A DNA stretch of 64,000 bases. It comes from a bacterium. GTDB taxonomy: Bacteria; Verrucomicrobiota; Verrucomicrobiia; Limisphaerales; UBA11358. Positions 3,162 through 61,949 of the stretch are shown one piece after another. Every line of letters starts with the position of its first letter. Within the stretch, counting starts at the first letter, position 1. Under the pieces are notes generated by a model. It was not told the DNA's origin. It saw only the letters and a list, made by a program, of their open reading frames with translations, and did not search any database. The position numbers and the translations under genes were made by a program. The stretch covers positions 82 to 64,081 of the forward strand of contig JAKALA010000016.1 in assembly GCA_021813325.1 (NCBI GenBank), in the 5' to 3' direction.

Positions 3162-4016
3162 TCACCACCAAAACTCCGGAATTTGGTAGGTGCCGGGCGA
3201 GTCCACTCGCGGATGCATGTTGTCAAACTTTCGCCACTCACCGTGGCCATCCAGCATGCCCACGTTGCCGCCGGACGGAATCGAGCTCTTGGTCAGATGC
3301 GCGGCCCGGTGGGCAAATGGCTGCCCCGTGGCCGGGTCGGTGTAGGACCCGTGGATTTGGGTGTATTTGTATTTATATTTCAAATCATCCATCTTCTGCC
3401 CCTGCAACGAAATCGTGGCATCCGCCAATAAAACCTGGTCCGATGGGCTTGGCGGCGGATAAGTAAAACCACCGCCAGAAAGAGCCTTGGGAATCAGGCT
3501 GACGTTGACGTTCGTGTAACACGCTTGCGTTTCAGGAAATCCCGCCATGCCTTTAAACGTATAGGCGTATCCTGTCACCCGGATCGCGCCGTAATTCCAC
3601 AAATTATCCTGATTTTGTTCGGGAAAGGCCGGACAATACATCACTCCCCGGCTCGTGCCGCTGGCCACCATCATATCCGCCGCCACCTTGGGAAGATCCC
3701 AGTTCCACGGACTGGGCAAGCCGGTCATATCCGGCAGATTGTCGCGATTATCCCCGGCATAAATCGTCAGTCCCAGACACATTTGTTTGACATTGCTGAG
3801 GCATTTGATGCGGATCGCCTTTTCTTTGGCTTTGGCCAAAGCCGGAAGCAACATGGCCGCCAGGATGGCAATGATGGCGATCACCACCAGCAGCTCGATC
3901 AAGGTGAAGCCCCGGCCCGAAGCCCGCGTGACCGGCCTCAACCGGGAAATCTTGGATTGAAACCGGCGGAACAGCAAAAGTGAAGGCCGATCCACCGGAC
4001 AAGACACCGCACTCAT
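3162..4016 (-). CDS. Prepilin-type N-terminal cleavage/methylation domain protein (DUF1559 / H-X9-DG-like pseudopilin)
   Basis: [32 protein letters not shown] is a class III signal / pilin N-terminus. The C-terminal [13 protein letters not shown] resembles the PVC-typical DUF1559 tail. The start is uncertain: ATG at 4016, upstream start at 4064, or TTG at 3941, which would give a short classic leader [11 protein letters not shown]. Confidence 0.85.
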
Positions 4017-4620
4017 GTTAACGATTCTCCGCTCTAATCGTTTCCAGTTCGTCTGCGCATCCATAGTTGCCAGCTTACCGGTTCGGGAAAAATTTCACAT
4101 AAGCGGAATCCACCGTTGGCTATTCCGTTTCACCATCCTTGGGAGACCACGCGGTTCTGGCTTAAGAGTGTGTCTGAAAAATCCAAAATTGCGAAAACCG
4201 CATAAAACGCTTGATTTAGCTTAAGCGCTTGTTTGAAAAAAAACGCCCAAATCGCTTGATTTGACTGGCTATTTTGCGGCTTTCATTCGCGGTTGCGCCC
4301 TTGCGGCGATGAAAATCGCTACCTACGATACCGACCTCCCCCACGGACCAATGGCACTTGCTTCGCCGCTTCCTGCCGCCGCCAAAAAACGCGGCCGCCC
4401 ACGCACCGCCCTGCGCGAGGGGATCGCCGCGTCTTCCAAGACATGACGTGCCACGGCTGCCGGGGTTTTCCCCATTGTCAGGCGACTTGATCAGGCACTT
4501 CAATGGTCGCTTGCAAAACGCTGGGAAGCCGCCCTTCACCAACCTCATGGCGATTGGCATTTGCCGGCTGGAAAGGGACATGTTCATCTCCAAAATCAAT
4601 GAACCGCCAGTTATTTCCTT

Positions 4621-7749: not shown

Positions 7750-8925
7750 TTAATCCCGCGATGGCAGCGTGCAGTAAAACGTCGCGCCTTTGCCCGGTTC
7801 ACTTTCCGCCCGCACCTCCCCGTTATGCGCATGAATGATGTGCTTCACAATGGACAGCCCCAAGCCGGTGCCGCCCTGGTCGCGGGAACGCGCCTTGTCC
7901 ACCCGGTAAAACCGCTCAAACACGCGGTCCAGCGCTTCTGGGGGAATGCCCGGCCCATCGTCCCGCACAAAAATTTCAATCCGGCCGTCGGCCAGTTTTT
8001 TGCCGCCCACGGTCACCATGCCATTCATGCGGCCATACTTGATGGCATTGTCCACCAGATTGGCGAAGACTTGATCGAGCCGGTGGGGATCGGCGCTGGC
8101 AACCAGTTCGGACATTTCACAAACCAGCCGCGTGCCTTTGCCTTCGGCCTTGGAATGCAAATCGTTTAAAACCCGCTCCGCCAGCGCCCGCAAATTCACC
8201 GGCTGCAAATCCAGTTTCATCCGGCCGGATTCCAAGGCCGAGATCGTCAGCAAATCTTGAATGAGCAAATCCAGCCGGTTGGCGTTGCGCTCGATGGTTT
8301 TGAGAAACCGCTCGGTCACTTCGGGATTGTCACGCGCGCCATCCAGCAGCGTTTCCACATAGCCCTTGATCAGCGACAGCGGCGTGCGCAATTCATGGCT
8401 GACGTTGGCGACAAACTCCTCGCGCTGCCGCTCCAATTGTTTGAGCCGGGTCAAATCGTGAAACACCAGAATGGTGCCTTCGCGCTCGCCGGCGCCGTTG
8501 GTGATCGCGGCGGCGTTCACCTGCAGCCAGCGCTCGTTCATTTCGGGCAGGCGGATGACATAATCCAGCACCTGCTTTTCGGATTCCACGCGTTTGAGCA
8601 GCTCATCCAGCTCATGCAGCCGCAGCGTTTCCACCACGGTTTTGCCCCGCAACTCCACCTTGAGGTCGAACAGATTTTTGAAGGCCCGGTTGGCGAGATA
8701 GATTTTTTTGGTGCGGTCCAGTAGCAGCAGCCCTTCCAGCATCGAATCAAACAGAATCTTTTGCTGCGCCTGCGCTTCCAGCGTGGTCTGCTGCTGGCGC
8801 TGACGCAACGCATCCAGGTCCGCCGTGCGCTGGCTTTGCAGCTCCGCAAAGCGCTGGCGCCACCGGTAGTGCAACCACACCAGAGCCGCCAAGGTCAGGA
8901 TGAATAGCGCCAGCCACACAGACAT
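7750..8925 (-). CDS. Sensor histidine kinase (PhoR-like)
   Basis: N-terminal TM helix and a PAS-like segment. HisKA H-box SHELRTPL. HATPase boxes NLVDNAIKY, DDGPGIPPE, GGTGLGLSIVK. Confidence 0.9.
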   Translation of the reverse strand: MSVWLALFILTLAALVWLHYRWRQRFAELQSQRTADLDALRQRQQQTTLEAQAQQKILFDSMLEGLLLLDRTKKIYLANRAFKNLFDLKVELRGKTVVETLRLHELDELLKRVESEKQVLDYVIRLPEMNERWLQVNAAAITNGAGEREGTILVFHDLTRLKQLERQREEFVANVSHELRTPLSLIKGYVETLLDGARDNPEVTERFLKTIERNANRLDLLIQDLLTISALESGRMKLDLQPVNLRALAERVLNDLHSKAEGKGTRLVCEMSELVASADPHRLDQVFANLVDNAIKYGRMNGMVTVGGKKLADGRIEIFVRDDGPGIPPEALDRVFERFYRVDKARSRDQGGTGLGLSIVKHIIHAHNGEVRAESEPGKGATFYCTLPSRD

Positions 8926-9018
8926 TATTTAGCCACAAACGCCGCGCGGATGAAACCCGGATTCCGGCCGGCGCTTGACGGAAGTTGAGGAGGATTCATC
9001 CGCAAGTCTCTGGGACAA

Positions 9019-9720
9019 TTATTCAACGAATCGATAGCCCACGCCACGCACCGTGTCCAGGTGCTTGGCCGCCGGTCCGATTTTTTCGCGCAGACGGCGC
9101 ATGTGCGTGTCCACCGTGCGGGTGTCGATCAAGCTGTCGTATTCCCACACATCGCGCAGCAACTGGTCGCGCGACTGCACGCGGCCGGAACGCTGGGCGA
9201 GCACGGTCAGCAGCTTGAATTCCGTGGCCGTCAATTCAATCGGCTTGTTTTTCCAACTGGCAACGTGCCGCGGCAGATCAATCATCAAATCGCCAAAGCG
9301 CAATTGTTCCTTGGGCTTTTCCTCCGCCTGGGCGCGGGAGAGAATCTTCTTCACGCGCAACATCAATTCACGCGGGCTGAACGGCTTGGTCAGGTAATCA
9401 TCCGCGCCCAGTTCCAATCCGAGCACGCGGTCGATTTCCGCCGCCTTGGCCGTGAGCATGATGATCGGCACCTTGGCCGTGGCGGCGTCCAGCCGCAGCG
9501 TCTTGCAAATCTCAAAGCCGTCCATCTCCGGCAACATCACATCCAAGACGATCAGATCGGGGGGTTGTGAACGGGCTTTTTTCAGCGCTTCCGCGCCGTC
9601 CATCGCCGTGCTGACGGCATAGCCGGCCTGCTTCAGGTTGAACTCAACGAGTTCCACCGCTTCCGGCTCATCATCCACAACTAAAATTCGCGGTTTCACA
9701 CTTGGAGGATGACATGCCAT
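9019..9720 (-). CDS. OmpR/PhoB-family response regulator
   Basis: Receiver domain (ILVVDDEPE, DLIVLDVMLPEMDG, LTAK) plus winged-helix output (LTATEFKLL, VRGVGYRF). ATG at 9720; the track start at 9762 is further upstream. Confidence 0.9.
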   Translation of the reverse strand: MACHPPSVKPRILVVDDEPEAVELVEFNLKQAGYAVSTAMDGAEALKKARSQPPDLIVLDVMLPEMDGFEICKTLRLDAATAKVPIIMLTAKAAEIDRVLGLELGADDYLTKPFSPRELMLRVKKILSRAQAEEKPKEQLRFGDLMIDLPRHVASWKNKPIELTATEFKLLTVLAQRSGRVQSRDQLLRDVWEYDSLIDTRTVDTHMRRLREKIGPAAKHLDTVRGVGYRFVE

Positions 9721-46927: not shown

Positions 46928-48319
46928 CTACCGATTCCGTGTAATTTTGTCGATTTGATTTATATTTTGTCCAACCAAGCCGCCCAATAACGTAAAAGCC
47001 ATCCAAGACAGTGCGGGAATATACAAGCCAAACTCACCCAAGCCTTGAGCGAACCAACCCAATAATCCCAACAAAATGGCAACAGCCAGTTTTTCGTCTG
47101 TCCTCCAATTTTTTTTCCTCACGGTTGTCAAAGCAGCCAAAATCCACCCCGCGTAGGTTAAGCCGCCAACCACACCAGAATCCGAAAATTGTTCGAGGTA
47201 ATCATTATGCGTGAGGCGGGCCATTTCGGCGTCAGGAGCTTTGATGCGCGCGTAAGAGCGTTGAAAAGTTCCCGGACCGCTGCCAAACATTGGATTGGCA
47301 ACTGTCGTCTGAACCGCTGCCCGCCAATAATCGATTCGGGCGCTGGCACTGGTGGCTCCCGCAGCAAAATAGTGATGGAATCGCAGGCCAAAAACGCCCA
47401 GACCGAACACAAGCACAAGCATGACCGAGCAGCATTTCAGTTTTTTCGACCAATTAAACCGTAAAAGGAACAGCCCTAGGAGTCCAATACCGATCAACCA
47501 ACCAAGTTTGGATCCACTCCAATAAAAACCGGCGCTTCCAAGAAAAACCAACAACCCCATGGCTGGAAAACGCACAATTGGCTTCATGCCTTGAAACCAT
47601 TCAAAGGCCAACACCAAGGAAAGCGGCCACAGCAACAAAACGATACCCGCCAGCGCGTTAGGATAGACCAGCGTGCCAGAAACCCGACCGCTGGCGAACT
47701 TGTCCAATATCACCGGGTTGGCGACATCGACGCCGTTGGTCGTGATAATGATGCGTTCGCTTTTCATGGCCGCAACGGCCTCCGGGAGAAAATTCGTCCA
47801 CCCACAATGTTCCCCTTCCATCAACATCTGATGGTTTTGGGGAAATTCATAAACATGCTGTTCGACACTGCGGACCAGGCAAAAAACAAACGCCGCCAGC
47901 ACCCCCGGCAACAGCCAGCGCCAAAGCCCCGCTTGGGACAAAATGAATGCTCCAACGAAATAGCACGCCACACATCCGGCAAATTGCCAGAGCGTCGCAA
48001 CCGTTAACCGAGCATCAACCGATTGCGTGGCGGACAAAATTTGCCAGCCCAACCAAACCAGCGGCAGCAACCACAGCCATCTGGAAGGCCATATTTTCTT
48101 TGCGCCACCGCCCACCAATAGCCCCCCGACAGCCGCCAGCGGCAGCAAACACCATTTGGCCCAATGAGTCGGCCAAGGTTCACTGAGAAATTGGGCAGGC
48201 GTAACCGGAGAAGGAATGATCCGATCCAGAATGACCGGATTGCCAAATTTCCAGATGCAAAGCCCCAGAAACAGTCCAAATGCCAGCGCGTAAAGTTTCG
48301 ACGCGGAGAGATTTTTCAT
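46928..48319 (-). CDS. O-antigen ligase-like (Wzy_C) polytopic membrane protein
   Basis: At least 10 hydrophobic helices and a periplasmic loop with [13 protein letters not shown] (the Wzy_C-type H-N-x-Y-L motif). Confidence 0.7.
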
Positions 48320-48323
48320 CGCG

Positions 48324-49349
48324 TCAAAGCTGAAGTTTCAGCAATCCAACTTCCAGTGCCAGTGCCTCCTGCACGTTGGTGTAAAGCAGTCGTTGAGTTT
48401 GTTCCAAAACCGCCAAATTTTCCCGGGCCTGCCGGGGACTGATCCGCTTGGCCACCTCTTCAGCCCCGGGGATCTGTGGTAAATGCAGCAGCGCTTCGCC
48501 CGCCGACAAGGTGTAAAGCCAGACATCGCGCAGCCACCATTGCACCAGCAACAACAAATCCGCGCGCTGACGGCGATATTCCGCTTCCACTGCGGCGGTC
48601 AATTCATCCTCCCATTTTTCACGCAGATCCTTTTCGGCATCAGCGTATTTTTCCAGCGGCGAACGCGCGGACAAAATTTCCTCCGTGCCGGCGCGGATTT
48701 CCGCCAGCCGTTGCAGCAATGAATCCAGCAAGCGATAGCGGCTGAACAAACTTTTTTGTTCGGCGGCGGCGATGCCACTAAATTTGTGCAACCATTCCGA
48801 TTGGGCCGGAGCAAGCTGGCGTTTCCCTTCAGCCGAAAAATTCAAGCGCAGGCAGCGCGACAAGATGGTCTCCAAAATCCGTGACGGCTCGGTGGAAATA
48901 AGAATCAACACCGACTTGGAAGGCGGTTCCTCCAGGGTTTTAAGGAAAGCGTTGGCCGCTTGCGTATTCAGCCGGTCGGCACCAACAATGACCGCCACTT
49001 TAAACTGCGCCTCCGTCGGCTTCAGTTGGATTTGTTGCATCAAATCGCGGGTTTGATCGATCGTAATGATGCGCGATTTGGATTCCGGTCTCGCCCAATG
49101 AACATCGGCGTGGTTTTCGCCTTCAATTTTCCGGCAACTCAGGCATACATCGCAACAATCCGTGGCAATTCCCGAAGTCAGAACGGGGTTTTGGCAATTC
49201 AGCGTCTTGGCCAGCGTGCGCGCCAGGATTTCCAATTCCTCCACCTGATGGCCGGTAAACAGGTAAGCGTGGCCCAGCCTTCCCCGGGCAAGCGAACGCT
49301 GCAAAAGCTGCACACCTTGGGTTTGCTCTGGGAGATGTTTGAAGGCCAT
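48324..49349 (-). CDS. holB: DNA polymerase III delta-prime subunit
   Basis: GRLGHAYLFTG, Zn-module CCDVCLSC and NAFLKTLEEPP. The ATG at 49349 is 13 nt after the tRNA 3' end; the longer track ORF would overlap the tRNA. Confidence 0.85.
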   Translation of the reverse strand: MAFKHLPEQTQGVQLLQRSLARGRLGHAYLFTGHQVEELEILARTLAKTLNCQNPVLTSGIATDCCDVCLSCRKIEGENHADVHWARPESKSRIITIDQTRDLMQQIQLKPTEAQFKVAVIVGADRLNTQAANAFLKTLEEPPSKSVLILISTEPSRILETILSRCLRLNFSAEGKRQLAPAQSEWLHKFSGIAAAEQKSLFSRYRLLDSLLQRLAEIRAGTEEILSARSPLEKYADAEKDLREKWEDELTAAVEAEYRRQRADLLLLVQWWLRDVWLYTLSAGEALLHLPQIPGAEEVAKRISPRQARENLAVLEQTQRLLYTNVQEALALEVGLLKLQL

Positions 49350-49362
49350 TCGCTTTGCCAGG

Positions 49363-49449
49363 TGGTGCCGATGGAGGGGGTCGAACCCACACATCCTTCC
49401 GGATACCAGATTTTGAGTCTAGCGCGTCTGCCAATTCCGCCACATCGGC
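49363..49449 (-). tRNA. tRNA-Leu (anticodon CAA), class II with long variable arm, CCA encoded
   Basis: Minus strand GCCGATGTGGCGGAATTGGCAGACGCGCTAGACTCAAAATCTGGTATCCGGAAGGATGTGTGGGTTCGACCCCCTCCATCGGCACCA. Acceptor stem GCCGATG/CATCGGC, anticodon loop CTCAAAA, T-loop GGTTCGA. Confidence 0.9.
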
Positions 49450-49483: not shown

Positions 49484-49523
49484 GGAAAAGAAAAAACGCC
49501 AATGGAAAATCTCCCATTGGCGT
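49484..49523 (-). terminator. Rho-independent terminator ending the lipoprotein operon
   Basis: Minus strand: ACGCCAATGG-GAGATTTT-CCATTGGCGT followed by TTTTTTCTTTTCC. It lies 24 nt after the stop at 49547. Confidence 0.75.
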
Positions 49524-49546
49524 CGGTTTATTATCAATTGATCTGC

Positions 49547-50137
49547 CTAGAATCCCACGGTGCTTTTGCTGCCTTGTTTGGTGATCTGCTTTTCGCCTTC
49601 CCACACGGCAATGCCTTGTTGATCGGTCAGCGAGAGCTGGAATGAATAGGTGGCCTGACTCGTATTGCCCGCCTTGGCCGTGGTTTCAATAATCTTTCCG
49701 GAGAGCGTGAAATCCGGCAAACGCGCCGGTTTCTGATCATTCATGAATTCCTGCTGTTGTTGAATGCCTTTGGCGAGTGGATCTTCTGCCTGGCCGCCCA
49801 ACCCAAATGTCGTCGTGGTCACCGCCTTGCCGCTTTGATTGAGCGCCACCCGGATTTTTTTGGTCAGCAAATCAATATCAATCTGCTGGCCGGTGTTGTT
49901 CACGATCCGGCTCATGGCCAAAACGGCGGGCGGATTCTTCACCCGATCCAACACGCCCGACGCCAGCAAATCGCTGGCAGCCGAGTCGGCCGCCTGAATA
50001 AAATCCTGATCGTTGATGCTGCCAACCGAAACAATGCTCTCGCGGCCGCCGGTTTGGATGTAATGGGCGTTGGTGCCGCAGCCGGTCAAAATGGCCGCAC
50101 TGACGGCAATGATGGGAAGTAGGACGATTTTTTTCAT
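49547..50137 (-). CDS. LpoB-like lipoprotein (COG3417-type)
   Basis: Lipobox AAILTGC. DFIQAADSAASDLLASGVL...AMSRIVNNTGQQIDIDLLTKKIRVALNQSGK matches the LpoB/YcfM family pattern. Confidence 0.65.
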   Translation of the reverse strand: MKKIVLLPIIAVSAAILTGCGTNAHYIQTGGRESIVSVGSINDQDFIQAADSAASDLLASGVLDRVKNPPAVLAMSRIVNNTGQQIDIDLLTKKIRVALNQSGKAVTTTTFGLGGQAEDPLAKGIQQQQEFMNDQKPARLPDFTLSGKIIETTAKAGNTSQATYSFQLSLTDQQGIAVWEGEKQITKQGSKSTVGF

Positions 50138-50157
50138 GTCAGTATTGGGCTAAAAAT

Positions 50158-50574
50158 TCAATGAGCTTCCAGCAATTTTAAACGAAAATCCCGGCACGCC
50201 GGCGTGGGCGCGACAGCCGAGACGAACTTGCTTTCACCGCCCTCGATTTGGTCCGGAACGGTGGCGGAAACCACGTTGTCGATTTGCATGCCGTTCTCGT
50301 CAAACCACTCAAAATGATAGGAGAAACGGTGAAATGATCGAGTGCGATTAAACAACTCCACCTGCACTTTGAGAAAACCGCCCGGCGTCATGCCGGTATT
50401 CACGCCCGCCACATAAACACTCCGGTTCAGCCCCATGTCGTTGACCACCCGCTGGTCGGCAATCATGTTCCGCTGCCCTTCTTTTTGGGCGTTTTCCACC
50501 GAATTCATCGGGTTGTGACAGCCAGCCATCAGCAGGGCGATGGCGGAAATCGCGGCGAGTTTGGTTTTGATCAT
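50158..50574 (-). CDS. YcfL-family (DUF1425) lipoprotein
   Basis: Lipobox LLMAGC. LKVQVELFNRTRSFHRFSYHFEWFDENGMQI...AVAPTPACRDFRLKLLE matches the DUF1425 pattern. Confidence 0.65.
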   Translation of the reverse strand: MIKTKLAAISAIALLMAGCHNPMNSVENAQKEGQRNMIADQRVVNDMGLNRSVYVAGVNTGMTPGGFLKVQVELFNRTRSFHRFSYHFEWFDENGMQIDNVVSATVPDQIEGGESKFVSAVAPTPACRDFRLKLLEAH

Positions 50575-50577
50575 AGT

Positions 50578-52050
50578 CTAAAGTTTAAACTGACTGACTA
50601 TTAACGGCGTGCCGGACGTGATGGATTTCACATAAACGACACTCACCGGTCGGCCTGAGTTCAAAGTTGCTTGCGCATTGTCCGAGGTCAAATCATTTTT
50701 GGCTCCGGTGCTGGCGCCGAGAGTGACGGCGACCTTCATCCCGTTGGGCGTGCTCAATTCGATTTTACCATCCGCCGGCGTGGGCAAGCGGCAAATCTGA
50801 AATTCCTTCGGCAACGTGGTCCACGTGCGGGTATCCGCAATGTTAACCGCCATTTCATACGCCGTCGTGGCGAATTGCGCCAAAAGCCCCACAATATCCC
50901 CCCCCTGGCGTCCGGTGTCATTCAGCGCATACGCCGCCACGGCTTTTGTGACCGTCGCCGCCACGGTTTTGGTGATGACCACAGGCATTTCATTTTTGAA
51001 ATCCAGCGCGACCATGCTGTCCATGCTGGCCACGGGTTCGGTTCGATAATCTTTGCCGTCGGCGGCAACCGTCAACATCGGCTGAAAGTCGCCCTGTGGC
51101 AGGAGCGTGGGAAACGCCGCGCCGACATAGGAAACTTTCGAGAGAATAATGGGAATATCGATCCGCGCCTGTCCCCGAATCGGGGCGCAGCCCGTTTCAA
51201 AAATCACATAGGTCGTGGGCGGCAGCGGCTTGCCATCAATCAAATCATTCACCGTCGCGATGTCGGCCTGCACATACGAATTTTCAGGCACCACGCTGGC
51301 AACCCGTTCCAGCGATTTATGCGCGCGTTCCAGGTCCGAGGCGTCCGTTGCATCGGCCATGAAAAACAACCCGTCGAGATACACCGTGAACGGATTCACG
51401 TAATCGGCATATACCCTGATGTTGTTGATTCCGGACATGGAATTTTGCACTGCGGTTTGAAACTTGGAATCAGCTTCGGCTTTATCAATGGTTTTGCTGT
51501 CCTTGCTATCGGCGGCCGCATCCTTCGCTTTTTCGATGCGCCGCTGGTTGGCTTGGACGGCATCTTCTTGACGTTGATAGGCGCGGATAATTTCCGGGCG
51601 CGCCTTGTCCGGCTCCCCCATGGCCAGATAATTCAACGCCTCGTAAGTGTTTAGCATGATCCCGTCATAGGAACGTCCTTCGTAGGCCAAATTTGCCTGA
51701 TTGGACAATAGAGCCGCTGTTTCCTGTCCCAGCCGCACATCCGCCTTTTGGGCGTAGTCATCAATCTTTTCCTGCGCCTGATCGAAAGCCTGATTGCTCT
51801 TCTCGAATTGTCCGGCAGCCCGCAACGCGGCTCCCTGTTCCAGGCGCCAAACGATGGCGTCTTTGCTGTCGGCATTCTGGTTGGCCTTGTCCGTGGCCTC
51901 ATTCACTGCGCCGGGAATATCGCCCCGACGCCAGTAGCTGATGACCTTGTTTTTTTGCTCGTAAGTCTGGCAACCCGTGGTGAACATGGCAGCGCCCAAT
52001 ACCGGCAAAAGCAGCCAGACAAGCTTTTTGAAACTGGGTTGCCCTTCCAT
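50578..52050 (-). CDS. Large lipoprotein with N-terminal TPR-like region (COG3014-like)
   Basis: Lipobox MFTTGC. 490 aa. Stop is 3 nt from the ycfL-like start. Gene order matches the COG3014 / DUF1425 / LpoB-like triad recalled from other bacteria. Confidence 0.5.
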   Translation of the reverse strand: MEGQPSFKKLVWLLLPVLGAAMFTTGCQTYEQKNKVISYWRRGDIPGAVNEATDKANQNADSKDAIVWRLEQGAALRAAGQFEKSNQAFDQAQEKIDDYAQKADVRLGQETAALLSNQANLAYEGRSYDGIMLNTYEALNYLAMGEPDKARPEIIRAYQRQEDAVQANQRRIEKAKDAAADSKDSKTIDKAEADSKFQTAVQNSMSGINNIRVYADYVNPFTVYLDGLFFMADATDASDLERAHKSLERVASVVPENSYVQADIATVNDLIDGKPLPPTTYVIFETGCAPIRGQARIDIPIILSKVSYVGAAFPTLLPQGDFQPMLTVAADGKDYRTEPVASMDSMVALDFKNEMPVVITKTVAATVTKAVAAYALNDTGRQGGDIVGLLAQFATTAYEMAVNIADTRTWTTLPKEFQICRLPTPADGKIELSTPNGMKVAVTLGASTGAKNDLTSDNAQATLNSGRPVSVVYVKSITSGTPLIVSQFKL

Positions 52051-52077
52051 GTTAACCGTGTCCTTCGCGGTAAATAA

Positions 52078-53037
52078 TTATTTCGCCTTGCGCAAAACCG
52101 CGCCTTTGTCGATGCCGGAATCTTCAATCACTTGGGCTTGCGAAGTTTTGGGGTTGACCTGGGTGATCTTGACCTGGCCCACCTTGACTTCTTCACGGCC
52201 CAGAGATTCCTTGGTGTCCGGATCAATCAACTCCTCGCCCAACGCATAAACGTTGAACACATCTCCCGGCGCCACCCCACCGCCTTCGCCCCGGTTGATG
52301 GTCACGATGTCATCCCGCCGGATCAGCACCTTTGCCGGAAAAATCACGTCGGCCACGTGAAGGGCGATTTTCTCCGCCATGCTGCGGGCGATTGCCACCA
52401 TCATTTCATCGCTCAATTCGCCGCTCTTGACCGAATAACTGCGATCCATCTGGATTTGTTTGAACTCGTCGTTGCCCGTCTGAAAATTGGCCGACTCCAG
52501 CAGCTTGCCGGTGCTGGAATCATAAATTTTGCCCACCACGGAAAACCGAAACACCCGCTTGGTCGCAGTCTGGCCGGTGCCCTCAAACGTGGCTTTTTCA
52601 AGGTAATCATCAAAATCATCCACCGTGGCCACCAACAAGTATTTGGCGCCTGCCAGCTTGCCGGATTGCGCGGCCGTTTTGGCGTCCACATTGCCGGATG
52701 CGCCCAAATCCTGCTCCTTGATGACGTCCGCCAGATCGCTGCGGCTCACCACCTCAAATTTCCGCGTCGCATTTACGCGGTCGATCAACTGGCTGTCCAA
52801 CGATTCGATGATGCGATTCAACTCCTGCTTGTTGTTGAACTCAATGCGTTCGCGCTTGGTATCGGTCGCGGTCGTGGCGACGGTTTTGGTGCTGGACGCA
52901 TCCAGCAGTGCCGGCGTGGCCTTGATGGACGAAATGGCCAGCGTCGCTTTCTCCTGTGCGCCCGCCACCGGCGGCAGCAAACCCAGGACGCCCGCGGCCA
53001 GGGCAATTTTTAAAACTGATTTTTTCATGGGAATCAT
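52078..53037 (-). CDS. CsgG/HfaB-like (COG1462-type) periplasmic protein with a C-terminal beta-barrel-like domain
   Basis: Signal peptide. LDSQLIDRVNATRKFEVVSRSDLADVIKEQDLGASGNVDAKTAAQSGKLAGAKYLLVATVDDFDD follows the CsgG-family N-terminal pattern. The C-terminus VLIRRDDIVTINRGEGGGVAPGDVFNVYALGEE...VKITQVNPKTSQAQV is FlgT_C-like. Confidence 0.5.
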   Translation of the reverse strand: MIPMKKSVLKIALAAGVLGLLPPVAGAQEKATLAISSIKATPALLDASSTKTVATTATDTKRERIEFNNKQELNRIIESLDSQLIDRVNATRKFEVVSRSDLADVIKEQDLGASGNVDAKTAAQSGKLAGAKYLLVATVDDFDDYLEKATFEGTGQTATKRVFRFSVVGKIYDSSTGKLLESANFQTGNDEFKQIQMDRSYSVKSGELSDEMMVAIARSMAEKIALHVADVIFPAKVLIRRDDIVTINRGEGGGVAPGDVFNVYALGEELIDPDTKESLGREEVKVGQVKITQVNPKTSQAQVIEDSGIDKGAVLRKAK

Positions 53038-53061
53038 TCGTTGGTTGAAACTAAAACCGGC

Positions 53062-54279
53062 TTAATAAAGGCTCTTGTAAATTTTGGTTCCTTCCGTGGT
53101 ATCCACGCGATAGTGGCTATTCTTGAAAAATTCCGCGACGCCTTCAATGCGCTTCACCTCGGCATCGGTCAACTTGCGATTGTTGTCCAGCGTCGCCAGG
53201 AAATCGGTTGTATCCTTCCATTTCGCGTAACCCTCCGGGCTCATCTGCAACGCCACGCGCAGGGTCTGGCCGTCGTAAATGTTCACGGTGCGCGCCCAGT
53301 CGGAGAAGCCTTCGCGCGACAGCCGCAGCTTGTGCAATCCAGGCCGCGCCTTGAATTCGCCCGGTGCGGAACCCAACGCCACGCCATCCAGTTCCACCGT
53401 CACATCCATCGGCTGGACCGCCATGGGATGGTTGGTGACAATGACTTGATTGTCGGCGGAAAGGTTGATGTCCGGCACCAGAATCGGTTGCAAGCGCGGA
53501 TCGGTCATGGTGCAGGCAATGTTGAAACTCACCAGCGCAGCCTTGGCCACGCTGGCTGGCAGTGTTTTGCCGCTCTCTGTTATCGCGGCGGCGAGCTGAT
53601 CTGCCGCGTCGTCCAACAATTGATTAATAATATCGCTGCTGTCTGTCTGCAACGCGCTCGTGTCGCGCACGTTTTTTTCGGAAATCACCGTGCCGCCGCG
53701 CTCGGCGCCCCCTTCACCGGCTCCAATAATCCGGTAGTTCAAGCGCAGGCGATACGTGGTGTTCAACGTTTTGATGCCGTTGCCTGCATACGATTTTTTC
53801 TCCGTGCCATAGCTCGTAATCGCGGGAATCAAAATGTAGTCCACGCCCAAATTTTGCGCCAGGCGCAACGCCGAAGTGTTGTTGCTCAACTCGCGATCCA
53901 GCGGCGTCGCTTCGATCCCGCCCGAGGTGTTCGCCCGCTCGGCGGTTCGCAGCGCATTGACGGCCACGTCCCGGCTGACCACGGCGAAACCCCGGCCCGC
54001 CACCCGGCTGCTGACCAAATCCTCCAAGGCTGGAACCTGGTCGTTCAAAGTCGCGCTGGCGCGGTTCTCCACCACGATGAGCACTTTGCGCTGGCCTTTG
54101 GGTTTGATGACCTCCGTAATCTGAGTGTGCGGTGTGACATTGGTCGTAAACCACGTGTTGGTCGTCCTGACCGTCTCGTTCTGATTCGCATCCGATGGAA
54201 CCGCCGCGTTCTGAGCGTGCGAAAAGGTGAAATTTAAGAGCACACCAAGGGCGACTAATAAAAACTGAATTCGTTTCAT
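53062..54279 (-). CDS. Secreted protein with a CsgG-like N-terminal module and a PEGA domain
   Basis: Signal peptide MKRIQFLLVALGVLLNFTFSHA. VLIVVENRAS...LEDLVSSRVAGRGFAVVSRDVAVNAL...LGVDYILIPAITSY. PEGA-like VTVELDGVALGSAPGEFKARPGLHKLRLSREGFSDWARTVNIYDGQTLRVALQM. Confidence 0.5.
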   Translation of the reverse strand: MKRIQFLLVALGVLLNFTFSHAQNAAVPSDANQNETVRTTNTWFTTNVTPHTQITEVIKPKGQRKVLIVVENRASATLNDQVPALEDLVSSRVAGRGFAVVSRDVAVNALRTAERANTSGGIEATPLDRELSNNTSALRLAQNLGVDYILIPAITSYGTEKKSYAGNGIKTLNTTYRLRLNYRIIGAGEGGAERGGTVISEKNVRDTSALQTDSSDIINQLLDDAADQLAAAITESGKTLPASVAKAALVSFNIACTMTDPRLQPILVPDINLSADNQVIVTNHPMAVQPMDVTVELDGVALGSAPGEFKARPGLHKLRLSREGFSDWARTVNIYDGQTLRVALQMSPEGYAKWKDTTDFLATLDNNRKLTDAEVKRIEGVAEFFKNSHYRVDTTEGTKIYKSLY

Positions 54280-54306
54280 AATGCCTGATAATTGAAAGTT
54301 TCCCGA

Positions 54307-54678
54307 CTACTTGACCGGCGGCGGCGCGGGATTCCCGGTGGGCGCGGGCATTTTGACGGGCCGGCCATATTGATCCACCAGCACGTCATAGGGCACCTGA
54401 ATCGAGCGGCCATCTGCCGTCGTTTCCGTTTTCCAATAGCGCACCATGCGGTAGCTGGGATCCAAAACTTTTCCCATGCCGGAAACCGTGCCGCCCACCA
54501 CGCCCGCGCCAAAGCCCACCGCATTGCCCGCCACCACGCCCACGCCCGTGCCGATGGCCGTGCCGGCCACCGGTCCAGGCTGATACGGACTGCCATTTCG
54601 ATCGCTGCTACAACCAGCCACCACAAAACCAACGCCCATGCCGGCGACGACGACGCGAAGAAAATTCGTGTTGTTCAT
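54307..54678 (-). CDS. Glycine-zipper lipoprotein
   Basis: ATG at 54678 is preceded by AAGAGGTG (a good SD). Lipobox FVVAGC. Glycine zipper GTAIGTGVGVVAGNAVGFGAGVVGGTVSG. Confidence 0.65.
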   Translation of the reverse strand: MNNTNFLRVVVAGMGVGFVVAGCSSDRNGSPYQPGPVAGTAIGTGVGVVAGNAVGFGAGVVGGTVSGMGKVLDPSYRMVRYWKTETTADGRSIQVPYDVLVDQYGRPVKMPAPTGNPAPPPVK

Positions 54679-54872
54679 AAAACACCTCTTCATTTCAAAT
54701 GCCGGTCAATTCTTGCGGCGATTGAGCCAAACAAACAAGTAAAATGTGGACGGCAACCGCTTGGCTGTGCTTCAGTCCCTGACCGGAATGACAGGCGGAA
54801 ATGGCTCCCCGCCCTTGATCCCATGAGCCTGGAGCCAACCAGCGTCACAACCCAGGCCCGTTTCTGCGGAAT

Positions 54873-56303
54873 TCAGACCTTGGGCTGCGGCTTCTCGCCA
54901 TCCACTTCGGCGCGGAAGCGGGGCAGACTGTGCGGATGATGCTGCTGGATATAGGCGATGAGTTTTTCGCGGACGTCGCAGCGCAAATCCCAGGATTTGG
55001 AGGAATCCGCGGAAGTGGCGAGCACGCGGATCTGCATGGTTTTTTCCGTGGCGTCGGTCACCTGCAAATTCCAGAAACGTTTGTCCCACAGCGGATGCGG
55101 TTCGATGATTTCTTTCAGCGCCTTGCGGATTTCCTCCAGCGGCAGGGTGTAATCCACCCATACGAACACGGAGCCAAGCAGATCAGCGGAGGTGCGGGTC
55201 CAGTTTTGGAACGGCTTTTCGATGAAGTAACCGAGCGGAACGATCAGGCGGCGCTCGTCCCAGATGCGGATGACCACATAGGTAAGGGTGATTTCCTCCA
55301 CGCGGCCCCATTCGCCTTCGACAATGACCACGTCGTCCAGCCGGATGGGCTGCGTCATGGCCAGTTGAAAACCGGCGAACAGGTTGGCAATGGTTTTTTG
55401 CGCGGCAAAGCCAATGATGATGCCCACCACGCCGGCGGAGGCGAGAATGCTGGTGCCGAACTGGCGGACTTCTTGAAACAGCATCAGCACCGAGGCAATG
55501 GTGAAAATGCCGATGATGGCGTAAAGCAGTTTGCTGATGACATGAACCTGCGTGTAAATCTTGCGGGCGTGCAGGTTGTCGGCGGCACTGATGTCGAACT
55601 GGGTCAGCACGGCCTTCTCGCCAAGATGCACCGACTCGAACAGGATGATGGCCACCGCGACGATGAGCATGATGCTGGTGCCTTTGCCCACGACTCCGGC
55701 AAATTCCGCCGGCAGCCCCAGCAGGGGCAGGGCAAAGATAATGCCCACCACGGGCACGATGACCCGCAGGCTCTTGCCGACCAACGGCACAAACAAGTCG
55801 TCCAATTTGCTTTCAGATTTGGCCGCCCAGATCGCGAGCCGCGCCTCCAGCACGTGGGTGAACCGGAAGAACAGCCAAAACAGAATGGCAAAAACGCCCA
55901 GGTCAAACACTTTGCTGAACAATTCGGTGATGAAGCGCAATCCCGCGTTGGGATTCATCTTCACGAGAAACGGTGTGGCGGCGAAGTAGATGCCGTATAT
56001 CCAGATCAAAACGTAGAGGGGGCGTCCCAACGCATGGAAAACATGGTGCTGCACACCTTTGTCCGGCGTGGCGGCAGCCTGCCGCATGCGGCGGCGCACG
56101 ATGGAGAGGGCCAGCCCGTTCACCAGCAGCATGAGCAGCACAAACCCGGTCATCACGGCCAAATCGGCCCAGGTGACCGGGCCGAAGACGGCTTTGCCGG
56201 CGCCTTCGCCAAACATCGCCTTGAGGCCGTGATTCATCGCGTTGGCCAGAGCAGCCGAGAAGCTGTCCAGAAAGTCTTTGCCGGTCAGATGGGTGTTCGT
56301 CAT
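54873..56303 (-). CDS. Mechanosensitive ion channel family protein (MscS-like)
   Basis: Several TM helices, then the MscS beta-domain PIRLDDVVIVEGEWGRVEEITLTYVVIRIWDERRLIVP. Confidence 0.85.
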   Translation of the reverse strand: MTNTHLTGKDFLDSFSAALANAMNHGLKAMFGEGAGKAVFGPVTWADLAVMTGFVLLMLLVNGLALSIVRRRMRQAAATPDKGVQHHVFHALGRPLYVLIWIYGIYFAATPFLVKMNPNAGLRFITELFSKVFDLGVFAILFWLFFRFTHVLEARLAIWAAKSESKLDDLFVPLVGKSLRVIVPVVGIIFALPLLGLPAEFAGVVGKGTSIMLIVAVAIILFESVHLGEKAVLTQFDISAADNLHARKIYTQVHVISKLLYAIIGIFTIASVLMLFQEVRQFGTSILASAGVVGIIIGFAAQKTIANLFAGFQLAMTQPIRLDDVVIVEGEWGRVEEITLTYVVIRIWDERRLIVPLGYFIEKPFQNWTRTSADLLGSVFVWVDYTLPLEEIRKALKEIIEPHPLWDKRFWNLQVTDATEKTMQIRVLATSADSSKSWDLRCDVREKLIAYIQQHHPHSLPRFRAEVDGEKPQPKV

Positions 56304-56318
56304 TGCTGTCGTCGTCGC

Positions 56319-59708
<3,390 letters not shown>

Positions 59709-59720
59709 AGCGCGTTTGGT

Positions 59721-61949
59721 TTATTGGAAACTCGGCTTGGCGGCGGAGCCGCCGGCCAATTCGTGCAACATGCGCCGCACGGTGGCCGGGCCGCTCAGGT
59801 AATAACGGGCGGAGGTGTTGGCCAAACCCACGCGCACGGAATACGCCGACAGCGGCAAGGCGCGAAACAAGTCTTCATCCGTCCAGTCGTCGCCAATGCC
59901 GAGAATGAATTCCGGCGACTGCCCCGACAGCCATTCTTTCCCGGCGGAACCTTTGTTGACGCCGGAGTTGCGCAGTTCGACAACCTTGTCGCCCTCGAAC
60001 ACCTGCACGTCAATGTTGCGCGTGTAACCCGTCAGATCGTCAATCAATTCCTTGGCGCATTCCGACGCTTGTTCCGGGTCGGCGCGCCGGTAATGCCACG
60101 CCAGTGAAAAATCCTTTTCCTCCATCAGCGCGCCGGGCAGGCGGTCCACATAAAGTTGAAGCAGCGGGCGCACGCGGTCTTTCCAATCGGCCGTCATGTT
60201 TTTAATCATGCGCCAGTCGGCGCCTTTGTCGCGCAACCACACACCGTGTTCCGCAATCAAGGAAATGGGCAGCTGGCCGAACCATTCCTCCAGCGTGCGG
60301 CGCGGCCGACCGCTGATGATGGTCACCTCGTTCGCCGGATCGGAGCCGAGCGCGGTGAGCGTCCCGACCAGGTCCGCGTCCGGTTGCGCGAGTTTCGGTT
60401 CCGCGGCAAAGGGCACCAGCGTGCCGTCGTAATCGAGCAGCAACGCCCGGCGGGGGGCGGCGCGGTATTGTTGAACCATGCCCGAATACGCCTTGCCGGT
60501 AAGCAACCGTGCGCGGCGGGCGTCCTCGGTCTTTTGCGTGGAAATCAAAGTTTGCACGAAATCATCCGCCCAGCGGACGACGTTGTAACGCCGCAACCGT
60601 TCCTGCATAAGCTGGTTGCGGCGGATTTGTTCCTCGACGGGCATGACCAGCGCCTGCTCCAACGCCTTGGCGAAATCCTCGCGGTGAAATGGATTGATGA
60701 TCATCGCCTCGCCCATTTCCTTGGCCGCGCCGGCCATTTCGCTCAAAACCAGCACGCCGGTCTGGTCGGGCCGCGAGGCCATGAATTCCTTCGCCACCAG
60801 ATTCATGCCGTCGCGCAACGGCGTGATGAGCGCCACATCGCACAGGCGGTAAAGCGGCACGATTTCGTCGAACGTCAGATTGCGGAATTGATAGACCAGC
60901 GGCGTCCAATGGACGTTGCCGTAATCGCCGACGATACGTCCGACGGTCTGCTCCAGTTCCTGCTTCATCGCCTGGTAACTGTCCACGCCAATGCGCGACG
61001 GCGCGACGGAAATGATGAACACGACCTTGCCGTGCCACTGCGGATTGTTCTTGAGAAACAATTCGTAGCCGCGCAGCCGGTTGATGAGGCCCTTCGTGTA
61101 ATCCAGCCGGTCCACGGAAAAAACCACCTTTTGCCCGACGCACTTTTCGCGCAGTTCCTCGACGCGCAGTTCGGTTTCCCGCGTGGTGGCGGCGGCGGCG
61201 AACCGGTCAAACTCCACGCCCATTGGCAGCGTTTCCACCTGCACCACGCGGTCGCGCAACGTGAGATTGCCGAGCTGATGTTCGTAGCCGGCCGTGCGCA
61301 GCACCGAGGTCAGAAAATCCCGGGCATAATCGTGCGTGTGAAAACCAATCAGGCTGGAACCGAGCAGCCCTTCGATGATCTCCTCGCGCCAGGAACGCGG
61401 CAGCATCCGGAAAATTTCCCAGGACGGAAACGGAATGTGCAGAAAAAAGCCGATGGGCATGTCCGGAAATTTCGCGCGCGCCAGCTTGGGCAGCAGCAGC
61501 AGGTGGTAATCGTGAATCCAGAGCACGTCGTCCGGACGCAGCGCGCTGACGACCGCCTCCGCAAACACGCGGTTGACGTTGCGATATTCCTGCCAGTTTT
61601 CCTCCTCGTAATGCGTCAGCATCGGGAAATAGTGGAACAACGGCCAGATGGTCTTGTTGCAAAAACCGAGATAAAACCGGTCCATGCTTTTCTCGGGCAG
61701 ATAAACCGGACGCGATTTAAACTTTTCCTCGCTGAACGCGCTCACTGCCGCTTCGTGTTCGGGCGGAATGCTGGTTCCCGGCCAGCCCATCCACAAATGG
61801 TCCGGCCGCTCCGTTCCGGACGGAAGCGGACGGTCCAGATAACTCCACAAGCCCGTGGTTAAACCGCCAGCACTGGGTTTGAACTGCGGCGAACCTTCCC
61901 GAAACGAAACCGTGAATGGCAGCCGGTTTGAAACGATAACTAACCTCAT
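59721..61949 (-). CDS. otsA: Bifunctional trehalose-6-phosphate synthase (GT20) / trehalose-6-phosphate phosphatase
   Basis: [24 protein letters not shown], then the HAD part [12 protein letters not shown] ... [12 protein letters not shown]. Confidence 0.9.

Follow-up and report, generated by a model that had tools for sequence, protein, structure and literature searches.

What can a bacterium build from six adjacent genes that all encode exported proteins, with no enzyme among them? The question is raised by a locus in a 64,000-nucleotide (nt) stretch of verrucomicrobial DNA (GTDB lineage Verrucomicrobiota; Verrucomicrobiia; Limisphaerales; UBA11358; GenBank assembly GCA_021813325.1, contig JAKALA010000016.1, positions 82 to 64,081 of the forward strand), the whole of which is called the window below. 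Its minus strand carries six consecutive genes, g1 to g6, between positions 49547 and 54693, which an original prediction had put forward as one uncharacterised envelope system. Judged by synteny and profile comparisons, the six genes are a composite, in which an invariant trio (g4-g5-g6) is joined by an optional pair (g2-g3) and a mobile small lipoprotein (g1). The trio is assigned here to the family of the Campylobacter jejuni cj0089-cj0090-cj0091 operon, and the products may together form a scaffold that couples the outer membrane to the cell wall.

A predicted operon of six exported proteins

The six open reading frames (ORFs) are tightly packed and are predicted to form one operon. The gaps between them are 27, 24, 27, 3 and 20 nt, exactly as first described. 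The genes and the domains on which the argument turns are as follows (lengths in amino acids, aa).

54307-54693, minus strand: g1, ORF of 128 aa; small lipoprotein, lipobox VAG-C, Cys28
53062-54279, minus strand: g2, 405 aa; exported, signal-peptidase-I signal SHA-Q
53239-53412, minus strand: PEGA domain of g2, aa 290-347 (Pfam PF08308, 42.3 bits against a cut-off of 20.8)
52078-53037, minus strand: g3, 319 aa; exported, signal-peptidase-I signal AGA-Q
52117-52305, minus strand: FlgT_C/TsaP-like C-terminal domain of g3, aa 245-307 (Pfam and family profile)
50578-52050, minus strand: g4, 490 aa; lipoprotein, invariant G26-C27
50806-50838, minus strand: g4 signature motif ADxRxWxxLPK, aa 405-415 (homologue alignments)
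50158-50574, minus strand: g5, 138 aa; YcfL/DUF1425 immunoglobulin-like (Ig-like) lipoprotein, lipobox MAG-C
49547-50137, minus strand: g6, 196 aa; LpoB-fold lipoprotein, lipobox LTG-C

That all six products are exported is borne out by the hydrophobic signal sequence with which each of them starts. Four signals contain a lipobox (g1, g4, g5 and g6) and two are of the signal-peptidase-I type (g2 and g3). The lipobox cysteine is kept in 70 of 72 homologues of g4, in all 55 of g5 (Cys19), in all 47 of g6 (Cys20) and in 28 of 33 entries of the g1 set, the five entries that lack it being contaminant ORFs. A lipobox-like motif occurs in one of 43 g2 homologues and in three of 43 g3 homologues. Profile searches against Pfam and NCBIfam found no enzymatic, ATPase or transporter domain in the six proteins, in agreement with the first description, and profile, structure and literature searches found no already characterised machine that matches the operon.

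Synteny of the six genes

The order of the genes was followed in 80 genome loci from Verrucomicrobia and from anammox and other Planctomycetes, in which the g4 homologue is 42-69% identical to that of the window. Because the arrangement is kept in relatives at this level of identity, it is not a product of chance. The genes for g5 and g6 directly follow g4 in 75/75 loci with enough downstream sequence. The g2-g3 pair lies ahead of g4 in 41 of the 64 loci with at least 2.5 kb of upstream sequence, and g1, depending on the genome, precedes g2, immediately precedes g4 or lies downstream of g6. It is on these counts, and on the shifting position of g1, that the description of the six genes as a composite is based; synteny in relatives, proposed as a check on a fixed ensemble of six, holds for g4-g5-g6 and fails for g2-g3 and g1 as constant members. 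No other conserved neighbour was found in the 80 loci, and this includes flagellar, pilus, secretin and penicillin-binding protein (PBP) genes.

The cluster is not specific to the Planctomycetes-Verrucomicrobia-Chlamydiae (PVC) phyla, as related loci are found in Alpha- and Gammaproteobacteria. A tblastn search of annotated plasmid records picked up the trio in Azospirillum, where it is annotated 'hypothetical - YcfL family - LpoB' and is followed by a DUF6844 protein and then by a 402-aa homologue of g3 (hhalign 97%, E 1.8e-11). Homologues of this 402-aa protein were then inspected in six contig neighbourhoods, which together with Azospirillum makes seven proteobacterial ones. Five of the six (Endozoicomonadaceae, Roseococcus and three further contigs) encode, in order, a protein of ~360-470 aa without a Pfam match, in some cases a small one of YcfL size, then an LpoB-domain protein, in most cases a DUF6844 protein, and finally a g3-like protein. 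In the Endozoicomonadaceae locus hhalign identifies the first of these as a g4 homologue (100%, E 3e-68) and the last as a g3 homologue (98%, E 1.2e-14). The sixth neighbourhood contains the DUF6844 and g3-like genes only.

The g3-like proteins of Proteobacteria carry signal-peptidase-I signals; an additional N-terminal domain gives them a three-domain FlgT-like layout, and some of them give FlgT_M matches. The DUF6844 protein sits immediately before the g3-like gene (L085 9391-10737, L090 5282-6982, L091 5628-7001, L092 5928-6998), in the slot that g2 takes in Verrucomicrobia and Planctomycetes. It was considered as a homologue of g2 or g3 and rejected, there being no detectable relationship. 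Seen across these neighbourhoods, g3 is a recurrent fourth partner of the trio in Proteobacteria, Verrucomicrobia and Planctomycetes, and g2 a paralogue of g3 that is limited to Verrucomicrobia and Planctomycetes.

As a separate observation, the DUF6844 and g3-like pair of the sixth neighbourhood (L094 2837-7248) adjoins a gene for a caspase-like Peptidase_C14 protein and has neither an LpoB-like nor a g4-like gene close by, which shows that the pair can also exist away from the trio.

The trio and the C. jejuni operon

In C. jejuni, cj0089, cj0090 and cj0091 form a co-transcribed operon of three lipoproteins (PMC3100323). We recovered this locus from a metagenome contig via a published primer, and the ORF lengths and signal-peptidase-II cleavage sites agree with those in the publication (PMC3100323). 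The g4 protein matches Cj0089 in BLASTP with an E value of 3e-33 (29% identity over 400 residues, signature motif included), and g6 matches Cj0091 over its full length (9e-29, 34% identity). The pairwise comparison of g5 with Cj0090 is not significant; both pass the Pfam DUF1425 model (Cj0090 with 1.2e-18). These matches make g4-g5-g6 orthologous to cj0089-cj0090-cj0091 and place the trio in that family. The view of the ensemble as uncharacterised is thereby narrowed: no characterised machine was found, and the trio has a published counterpart. A further member of the family is HP0018 of Helicobacter pylori, a homologue of Cj0089 (PMC11394524).

The experimental work on C. jejuni offers its own explanation, namely that the proteins act as adhesins or antigens at the surface or in the outer membrane, the conclusion drawn for Cj0091, and form no envelope-building complex. 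A cj0091 mutant is less adherent to INT 407 cells and weaker in early chick colonisation, and Cj0091 is abundant and immunogenic (PMC3100323). Surface exposure of Cj0091 is nevertheless undemonstrated in that work (PMC3100323), and an envelope defect would lower adherence indirectly. The folds are typical of periplasmic scaffolds, and the cluster is common in free-living soil and freshwater Verrucomicrobia, in anammox Planctomycetes and in Azospirillum, for which adhesion to a host is irrelevant. We consider an adhesin operon very unlikely.

The g4 protein belongs to no Pfam or NCBIfam family, and neither its single sequence nor its profile matched any solved structure. In the AlphaFold model (predicted local distance difference test, pLDDT, 64; predicted template modelling score, pTM, 0.67) the N-terminal half is helical and resembles tetratricopeptide repeats (TPR), while the C-terminal half is β-rich and holds a moderately hydrophobic helical hairpin rich in Ala, Thr and Val. 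Foldseek returned generic TPR proteins only (NlpI, PilF and BamD, E ~1e-2), with the C-terminal domain unmatched; model and matches are in keeping with the TPR-like lipoprotein that had been described. The motif ADxRxWxxLPK is present in 69 of 72 locus homologues, its residues Asp406, Arg408, Trp410, Leu413 and Pro414 being invariant in the homologue alignments, and it reads ADVRSWRGLPK in Cj0089. The family is large, with 3262 clusters at 50% identity (E<=1e-3).

Two side observations concern this protein. Some verrucomicrobial g4 homologues (L039, L041, L052, L054, L061, L067 and L073; ~8001-9700) carry an insertion of ~230 aa in the C-terminal half, visible as split tblastn matches and longer ORFs. 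Fusions of g4 homologues to a Ser/Thr kinase with a TPR array, to SurA_N and to HEAT (P0247, P0249, P0108) were not used, as they are probably artefacts of gene calling or assembly; the SurA_N fusion may instead hint at a link to periplasmic chaperones.

The assignment of g5 to YcfL/DUF1425 is upheld by Pfam (1.2e-16, 60.8 bits against a cut-off of 28.3). The g5 family profile matches the structures 3o0l (2e-14) and 4GIO, which is Cj0090 (2.5e-5), and the protein aligns with Escherichia coli YcfL. A literature search on YcfL, DUF1425, DUF6844, cj0092 and cj0093 found no functional study.

LpoB fold of g6

The reading of g6 as LpoB-like is likewise upheld, the Pfam model PF13036 being matched over its whole length (5.8e-22, 78.6 bits against a cut-off of 22.3, model positions 1-147 of 147). 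About 25 residues separate Cys20 from this domain. At the other end of the protein (49547-49582), the sequence closes with G/S-[F/W]-COOH, and the terminal residue is Phe or Trp in 47/47 homologues. An aromatic C-terminus is also found in Cj0091 (L089 3031-3654) and in the Azospirillum (L085 8759-9391) and Aeromonas (L086 8760-9356) proteins, whereas E. coli LpoB ends in VSQQ and has a long Pro-rich linker instead. Aromatic tail and linker divide the Cj0091 type cleanly from that of enterobacterial LpoB.

In enterobacteria LpoB activates PBP1B from the outer membrane (PMC3060616), which raises the possibility that g6 is a true LpoB. The operon would then be a verrucomicrobial LpoB-PBP1B system, in which a class A PBP is stimulated directly by g6, with the other five proteins in accessory roles. 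Besides the whole-domain Pfam match, the g6 family profile, the alignment for which includes E. coli LpoB, matches the LpoB structures 2mii, 4q6z and 4q6l. The g5-g6 order also mirrors the E. coli ycfL-lpoB pair, and a trio stands at the canonical lpoB-thiK locus of Aeromonas. Against these points, g6 scores 89.1 bits with the NCBIfam equivalog TIGR02722, below the cut-off of 110.55, and is 23% identical to E. coli LpoB compared with 34% to Cj0091. The disordered linker of ~50 aa, which spans 145 Å and without which LpoB would not get across the wall to the UB2H domain (PMC6220978), is missing in g6; an earlier study reported LpoB and UB2H from enterobacteria only (PMC3060616); and no PBP gene is among the conserved neighbours. 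A true LpoB is thus unlikely.

On an Aeromonas chromosome filed as a plasmid, also picked up by the tblastn search, a g4 homologue (BLASTP 1e-27), a DUF1425 gene, an LpoB gene and a thiK-like kinase gene follow each other in this order, which is the E. coli hinT-ycfL-lpoB-thiK locus plus an extra first gene. We read the trio as the ancestral context of E. coli ycfL-lpoB, an assignment that derives from gene order and homology.

The exported pair g2 and g3

The g2 protein consists of an N-terminal α/β-domain of the CsgG/LpoB/FlgT type (~aa 45-240), a PEGA β-sandwich (aa 290-347) and a conserved helical C-terminal tail. It had been described as CsgG-like with a PEGA domain. The PEGA part is clear from Pfam (E 7e-11). 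The N-terminal domain has no direct match in Pfam, CsgG included, and becomes recognizable through its relationship to g3 (hhalign probability 94%, E 1e-7; hidden Markov model, HMM, 2.7e-6) and through Foldseek. Profiles were needed for the kinship of g2 and g3 since the pairwise BLASTP comparison is not significant; nor is that of g3 with g6. No relationship of g2 or g3 to g6 or g5 was detected with hhalign.

A single-sequence search of solved structures with g2 returned nothing. With the AlphaFold model of g2 as a query, the top Foldseek matches are to FlgT of the Vibrio H ring (8z5n, E 1.5e-8; 3w1e, E 2.7e-7; 339-374 aligned columns). They are followed by GNA1162, HpaA, CsgG, LptE and PelC, all of a single α/β superfold found in periplasmic proteins that associate with the outer membrane.

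For g3, described earlier as a CsgG/HfaB-like protein with a FlgT_C-like barrel, the CsgG part passes its Pfam threshold (aa 76-191, 5.9e-13, 49.1 bits against a cut-off of 20.8). The FlgT_C match stays just below its own (1.7e-5, 25.6 bits against 27), and a weak LpoB match is also seen (7.5e-5). The barrel is further suggested by the g3 family profile, which matches the C-terminal domain of TsaP (6ve2_O, 3.3e-8, TsaP residues 265-326; 3jc8, 1.2e-3). FlgT_C and the TsaP C-terminal domain are ring-building domains. The g3 protein is probably a non-flagellar FlgT-like protein, in which a CsgG/LpoB-fold domain precedes a predicted FlgT_C/TsaP-like β-barrel.

If the CsgG match is taken at face value, g3 together with g2 would form an oligomeric outer-membrane channel of the CsgG/HfaB type that exports a fibre or polymer, with the lipoproteins as adaptors like CsgE and CsgF; a link to curli and holdfast channels had indeed been drawn at the outset. 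The Pfam score of g3 speaks for such a channel, as do the CsgG structures among the Foldseek matches of g2 (E ~5e-6), the automatic annotation of proteobacterial g3 homologues as 'CsgG/HfaB family' and the unusually long β-strands of the g2 model (15-19 residues, with an alternating polarity read from the sequence). The Pfam match of g3 is, however, confined to profile positions 36-154 of 210, and the direct hhalign comparison of the g3 family profile with E. coli CsgG gives an E value of 0.024 and a probability of 2% over CsgG residues 75-192 only; for the g2 profile E is 0.14. The lipobox of CsgG is lacking in g2, g3 and nearly all of their homologues, the proteobacterial ones with their signal-peptidase-I signals among them. 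The operon and its conserved surroundings contain no substrate, amyloid subunit, csgE/csgF, holdfast or polysaccharide synthesis gene, FlgT ranks above CsgG in the fold search with g2, and the trio lacks the pair in about a third of the loci. An export channel is improbable. We prefer to call g2 and g3 FlgT-like rather than curli-channel-like because of their signal-peptidase-I signals without a lipobox, FlgT as the top fold, the TsaP match in g3 and the absence of a significant CsgG match.

The FlgT-like character of the pair leads to another explanation, in which g2 and g3 serve as accessory ring proteins of a flagellar motor or of a secretin (type IV pilus or type II secretion) and their adjacency to the trio is incidental. 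FlgT, the best fold match, is part of the LPHT ring, the TsaP structures matched by g3 come from PilQ complexes, and HP0018, which enhances motility, is kept in Helicobacter species that have sheathed flagella (PMC11394524). No conserved flagellar, pilus or secretin neighbour is seen in the 80 loci, though, and none in the seven proteobacterial neighbourhoods, while g3-like genes go with LpoB-like and g4-like genes across phyla. Such an accessory role appears highly improbable.

The small lipoprotein g1

The g1 protein combines a Gly-rich stretch of the GxxxG type, recognized by eye, with the conserved C-terminal motif DPSYxMVRxWxTExTxDGRxIQVP. While its nature as a lipoprotein is supported by Cys28, its membership of a glycine-zipper family is not: the protein of the window matches no Pfam family at E<=0.1 and none of the glycine-zipper models (Gly-zipper_Omp, Gly-zipper_YMGG, Rick_17kDa_Anti) at E<=10, and its homologues reach glycine-zipper models below threshold only (E 0.12-1.5). 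For g1 'glycine zipper' is best read as a description of the sequence, not as a family assignment. Given its varying placement, g1 is a loosely attached accessory of the cluster.

Separately, ycfJ of E. coli, a member of the glycine-zipper family PF05433 (L087 7600-8001), lies ~4 kb downstream of ycfL-lpoB. The placement may be coincidental, or an echo of the small Gly-rich lipoprotein g1.

A proposed scaffold between outer membrane and cell wall

We propose that the operon encodes an outer-membrane-tethered scaffold, H-ring-like but non-flagellar, which would couple the outer membrane to peptidoglycan remodelling. The proposal is plausible by analogy with known systems, and we advance it with reserve. 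The products would assemble on the inner face of the outer membrane, facing the periplasm, with no catalytic subunit. Following the model of the Vibrio H ring, the FlgT-like proteins g2 and g3 would oligomerize under the outer membrane, and the lipoproteins g6 (LpoB fold), g5 (Ig-like), g4 (TPR scaffold) and g1 would anchor the assembly to it. Terminal peptides are common ligands of TPR domains. The invariant aromatic residue at the end of g6 probably serves to dock it into a partner protein.

As its output, the scaffold would control the enzymes that remodel peptidoglycan, acting from the side of the outer membrane and so coupling it to the wall; for HP0018, such a control of AmiA and MltD has been proposed. 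This output is proposed because of three observations on relatives: LpoB activates PBP1B; deletion of hp0018 results in chains of outer-membrane vesicles and in altered shape with less helical cells (PMC11394524); and HP0018 co-immunoprecipitates the peptidoglycan hydrolases AmiA and MltD (PMC11394524). Cj0091, the counterpart of g6, fractionates with the outer membrane (PMC3100323).

Several results weigh against this proposal. In C. jejuni, Cj0089 was recovered in the inner-membrane fraction, which misfits a simple outer-membrane model, and a cj0089 mutant had no phenotype in the two traits scored, adherence and colonisation (PMC3100323). No peptidoglycan enzyme is a conserved neighbour among the 80 loci, and g6 lacks the ~50-aa Pro-rich linker of E. 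coli LpoB. The structural side rests on models of two monomers, g4 (pLDDT 64) and g2 (pLDDT 66), both of middling confidence, and the TM-scores of the g2 model with FlgT are low (0.27-0.31 in Foldseek), so that the multi-domain match is a loose one. Finally, g2-g3 are absent within 8 kb of the trio from 21 of the 64 loci (confirmed by HMM), or about a third, and the FlgT-like pair is therefore either dispensable for the core or encoded elsewhere.

A broader version would see an ancient, phylum-spanning, non-flagellar and ring-shaped scaffold, composed of a g4-like TPR protein, an optional YcfL, an LpoB-fold protein and a FlgT/CsgG-like protein, joined by DUF6844 or g2 according to lineage, that couples outer membrane and peptidoglycan. 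The enterobacterial LpoB-PBP1B pair would then be a late and reduced derivative, and the Vibrio H-ring proteins would perhaps be relatives. In its full breadth we regard this as possible but doubtful. The best functional candidates stay those named in the original prediction, an outer-membrane-associated structure or regulation of peptidoglycan.

Significance of the cluster

LpoB is a textbook case of outer-membrane control of cell-wall synthesis. The present comparisons place its fold inside a much older cluster that extends over Verrucomicrobia, anammox Planctomycetes, Alpha- and Gammaproteobacteria and Campylobacterota, which contrasts with the reported recent, enterobacterial origin of LpoB. 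The other members of the cluster, the Cj0089/HP0018 family, YcfL and the FlgT/CsgG-like protein, have no established function. Half of the operon, the trio, has already been published, though it is poorly understood; g1-g3 are added to it here, and LpoB and YcfL are set within a phylum-spanning envelope gene cluster. If the products form one complex, it would be a widespread envelope module with a reach comparable to that of other outer-membrane-to-wall tethers, and it would offer a common framework for the vesicle chains and shape change of H. pylori and the adherence defect of C. jejuni. The predictions are testable in tractable hosts.

Transcription signals and genomic setting

The transcription of the operon is framed by the following features.

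54694-54872, minus strand: upstream spacer of 179 nt, from the stop codon of the MscS gene to the start codon of g1; presumed promoter and 5' untranslated region
49485-49524, minus strand: intrinsic terminator at the 3' end of the operon (13-bp stem, 4-nt loop, T run)
49363-49449: tRNA-Leu(CAA), beyond the operon terminator

Both the spacer and the terminator had been described, the former as 180 bp and the latter at 49484-49523; each is confirmed with a shift of one position or one nucleotide. The stem-loop of the terminator lies at 49495-49524 and is followed by the T run, and it is the sole strong terminator of the region. Weak terminator-like sites inside the genes are not in excess (12 observed, 9.0 +/- 2.8 in shuffled sequence). 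No σ70-type site was recognized on the operon strand of the spacer upstream of g1. The gene on the 5' side of g1 encodes an MscS-type channel on the same strand, with its stop codon at 54873, and transcription may enter from mscS. Apart from the tRNA-Leu(CAA), no Rfam or riboswitch element was found in the operon region, and an HMM search found no second copy of any of the six families within the 64-kb window. Several metagenome contigs carry identical copies of the operon, in which the gene callers chose the second ATG as the start of g1 and so predict a protein of 123 aa. The names of the closest relatives point to an uncultured soil or freshwater member of Verrucomicrobia subdivision 3 (Limisphaerales).

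Directly upstream on the minus strand, positions 54873-61949 encode the MscS-type channel, a 1129-aa TreS-like protein of the α-amylase family and an OtsA-OtsB fusion, which looks like an osmoprotection set (trehalose and a mechanosensitive channel). A role of the operon in osmotic stress was considered on account of this mscS, treS and otsAB block and was dropped because the block is not kept beside the operon in relatives. On the other side, a holB-like gene (DNA polymerase III δ', 48324-49394) overlaps the tRNA-Leu(CAA) by 32 nt as listed, and its real start is therefore probably an internal Met. Two genes downstream of the operon lies the gene of a Wzy_C (O-antigen ligase-like) membrane protein (46928-48319); the holB and Wzy_C pair is likewise found behind the operon in at least one relative (L028).

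Comparison with known systems

TsaP is a ring-forming periplasmic and peptidoglycan-binding protein around the type IV pilus secretin PilQ. The C-terminal β-domain of g3 resembles that of TsaP, but g3 has no LysM domain and no secretin gene is nearby. With CsgG and HfaB the cluster has in common that g3 passes the Pfam CsgG threshold and that CsgG is among the fold matches of g2. It differs in that g2 and g3 lack a lipobox and that equivalents of csgA, csgB, csgE and csgF are missing, while CsgG for its part has neither a FlgT_C nor a PEGA domain.

In the H ring of Vibrio, the small lipoproteins FlgP and FlgO form rings around a non-lipidated three-domain FlgT ring; both have an N-terminal Cys anchor, and their C-terminal loops interlock (bioRxiv 10.64898/2025.12.02.691832). 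The operon would offer the same kinds of components: non-lipidated multi-domain proteins of the FlgT type and small α/β lipoproteins anchored in the outer membrane, with no enzymes. The g2 model is closest to FlgT, and g3 has a FlgT_C-like domain that scores just under the Pfam cut-off. In contrast to the H ring, the cluster has no flagellar gene context, and g4 and g5 have no H-ring counterpart.

In E. coli, adjacent genes for a DUF1425 and an LpoB-domain lipoprotein stand in the same order as g5-g6, without a g4-like gene. E. coli LpoB, 23% identical to g6, has the Pro-rich linker of ~50 aa and no aromatic C-terminus, and in g6 the reverse is found.

The closest system is the cj0089-cj0090-cj0091 operon of C. 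jejuni, with which HP0018 and HP1457 of H. pylori are listed as counterparts. It differs from the operon of the window in that the latter has g1, g2 and g3 as extras upstream, and in C. jejuni cj0091 is followed by cj0092, which encodes a DUF6844 protein (its start at L089 ~3735-4334). The two operons share three families in the same order, g4-g5-g6, beginning with a TPR-like lipoprotein of ~450-490 aa, and the genes are spaced by 3 and 20 nt in the window and by 9 and 23 nt in C. jejuni.

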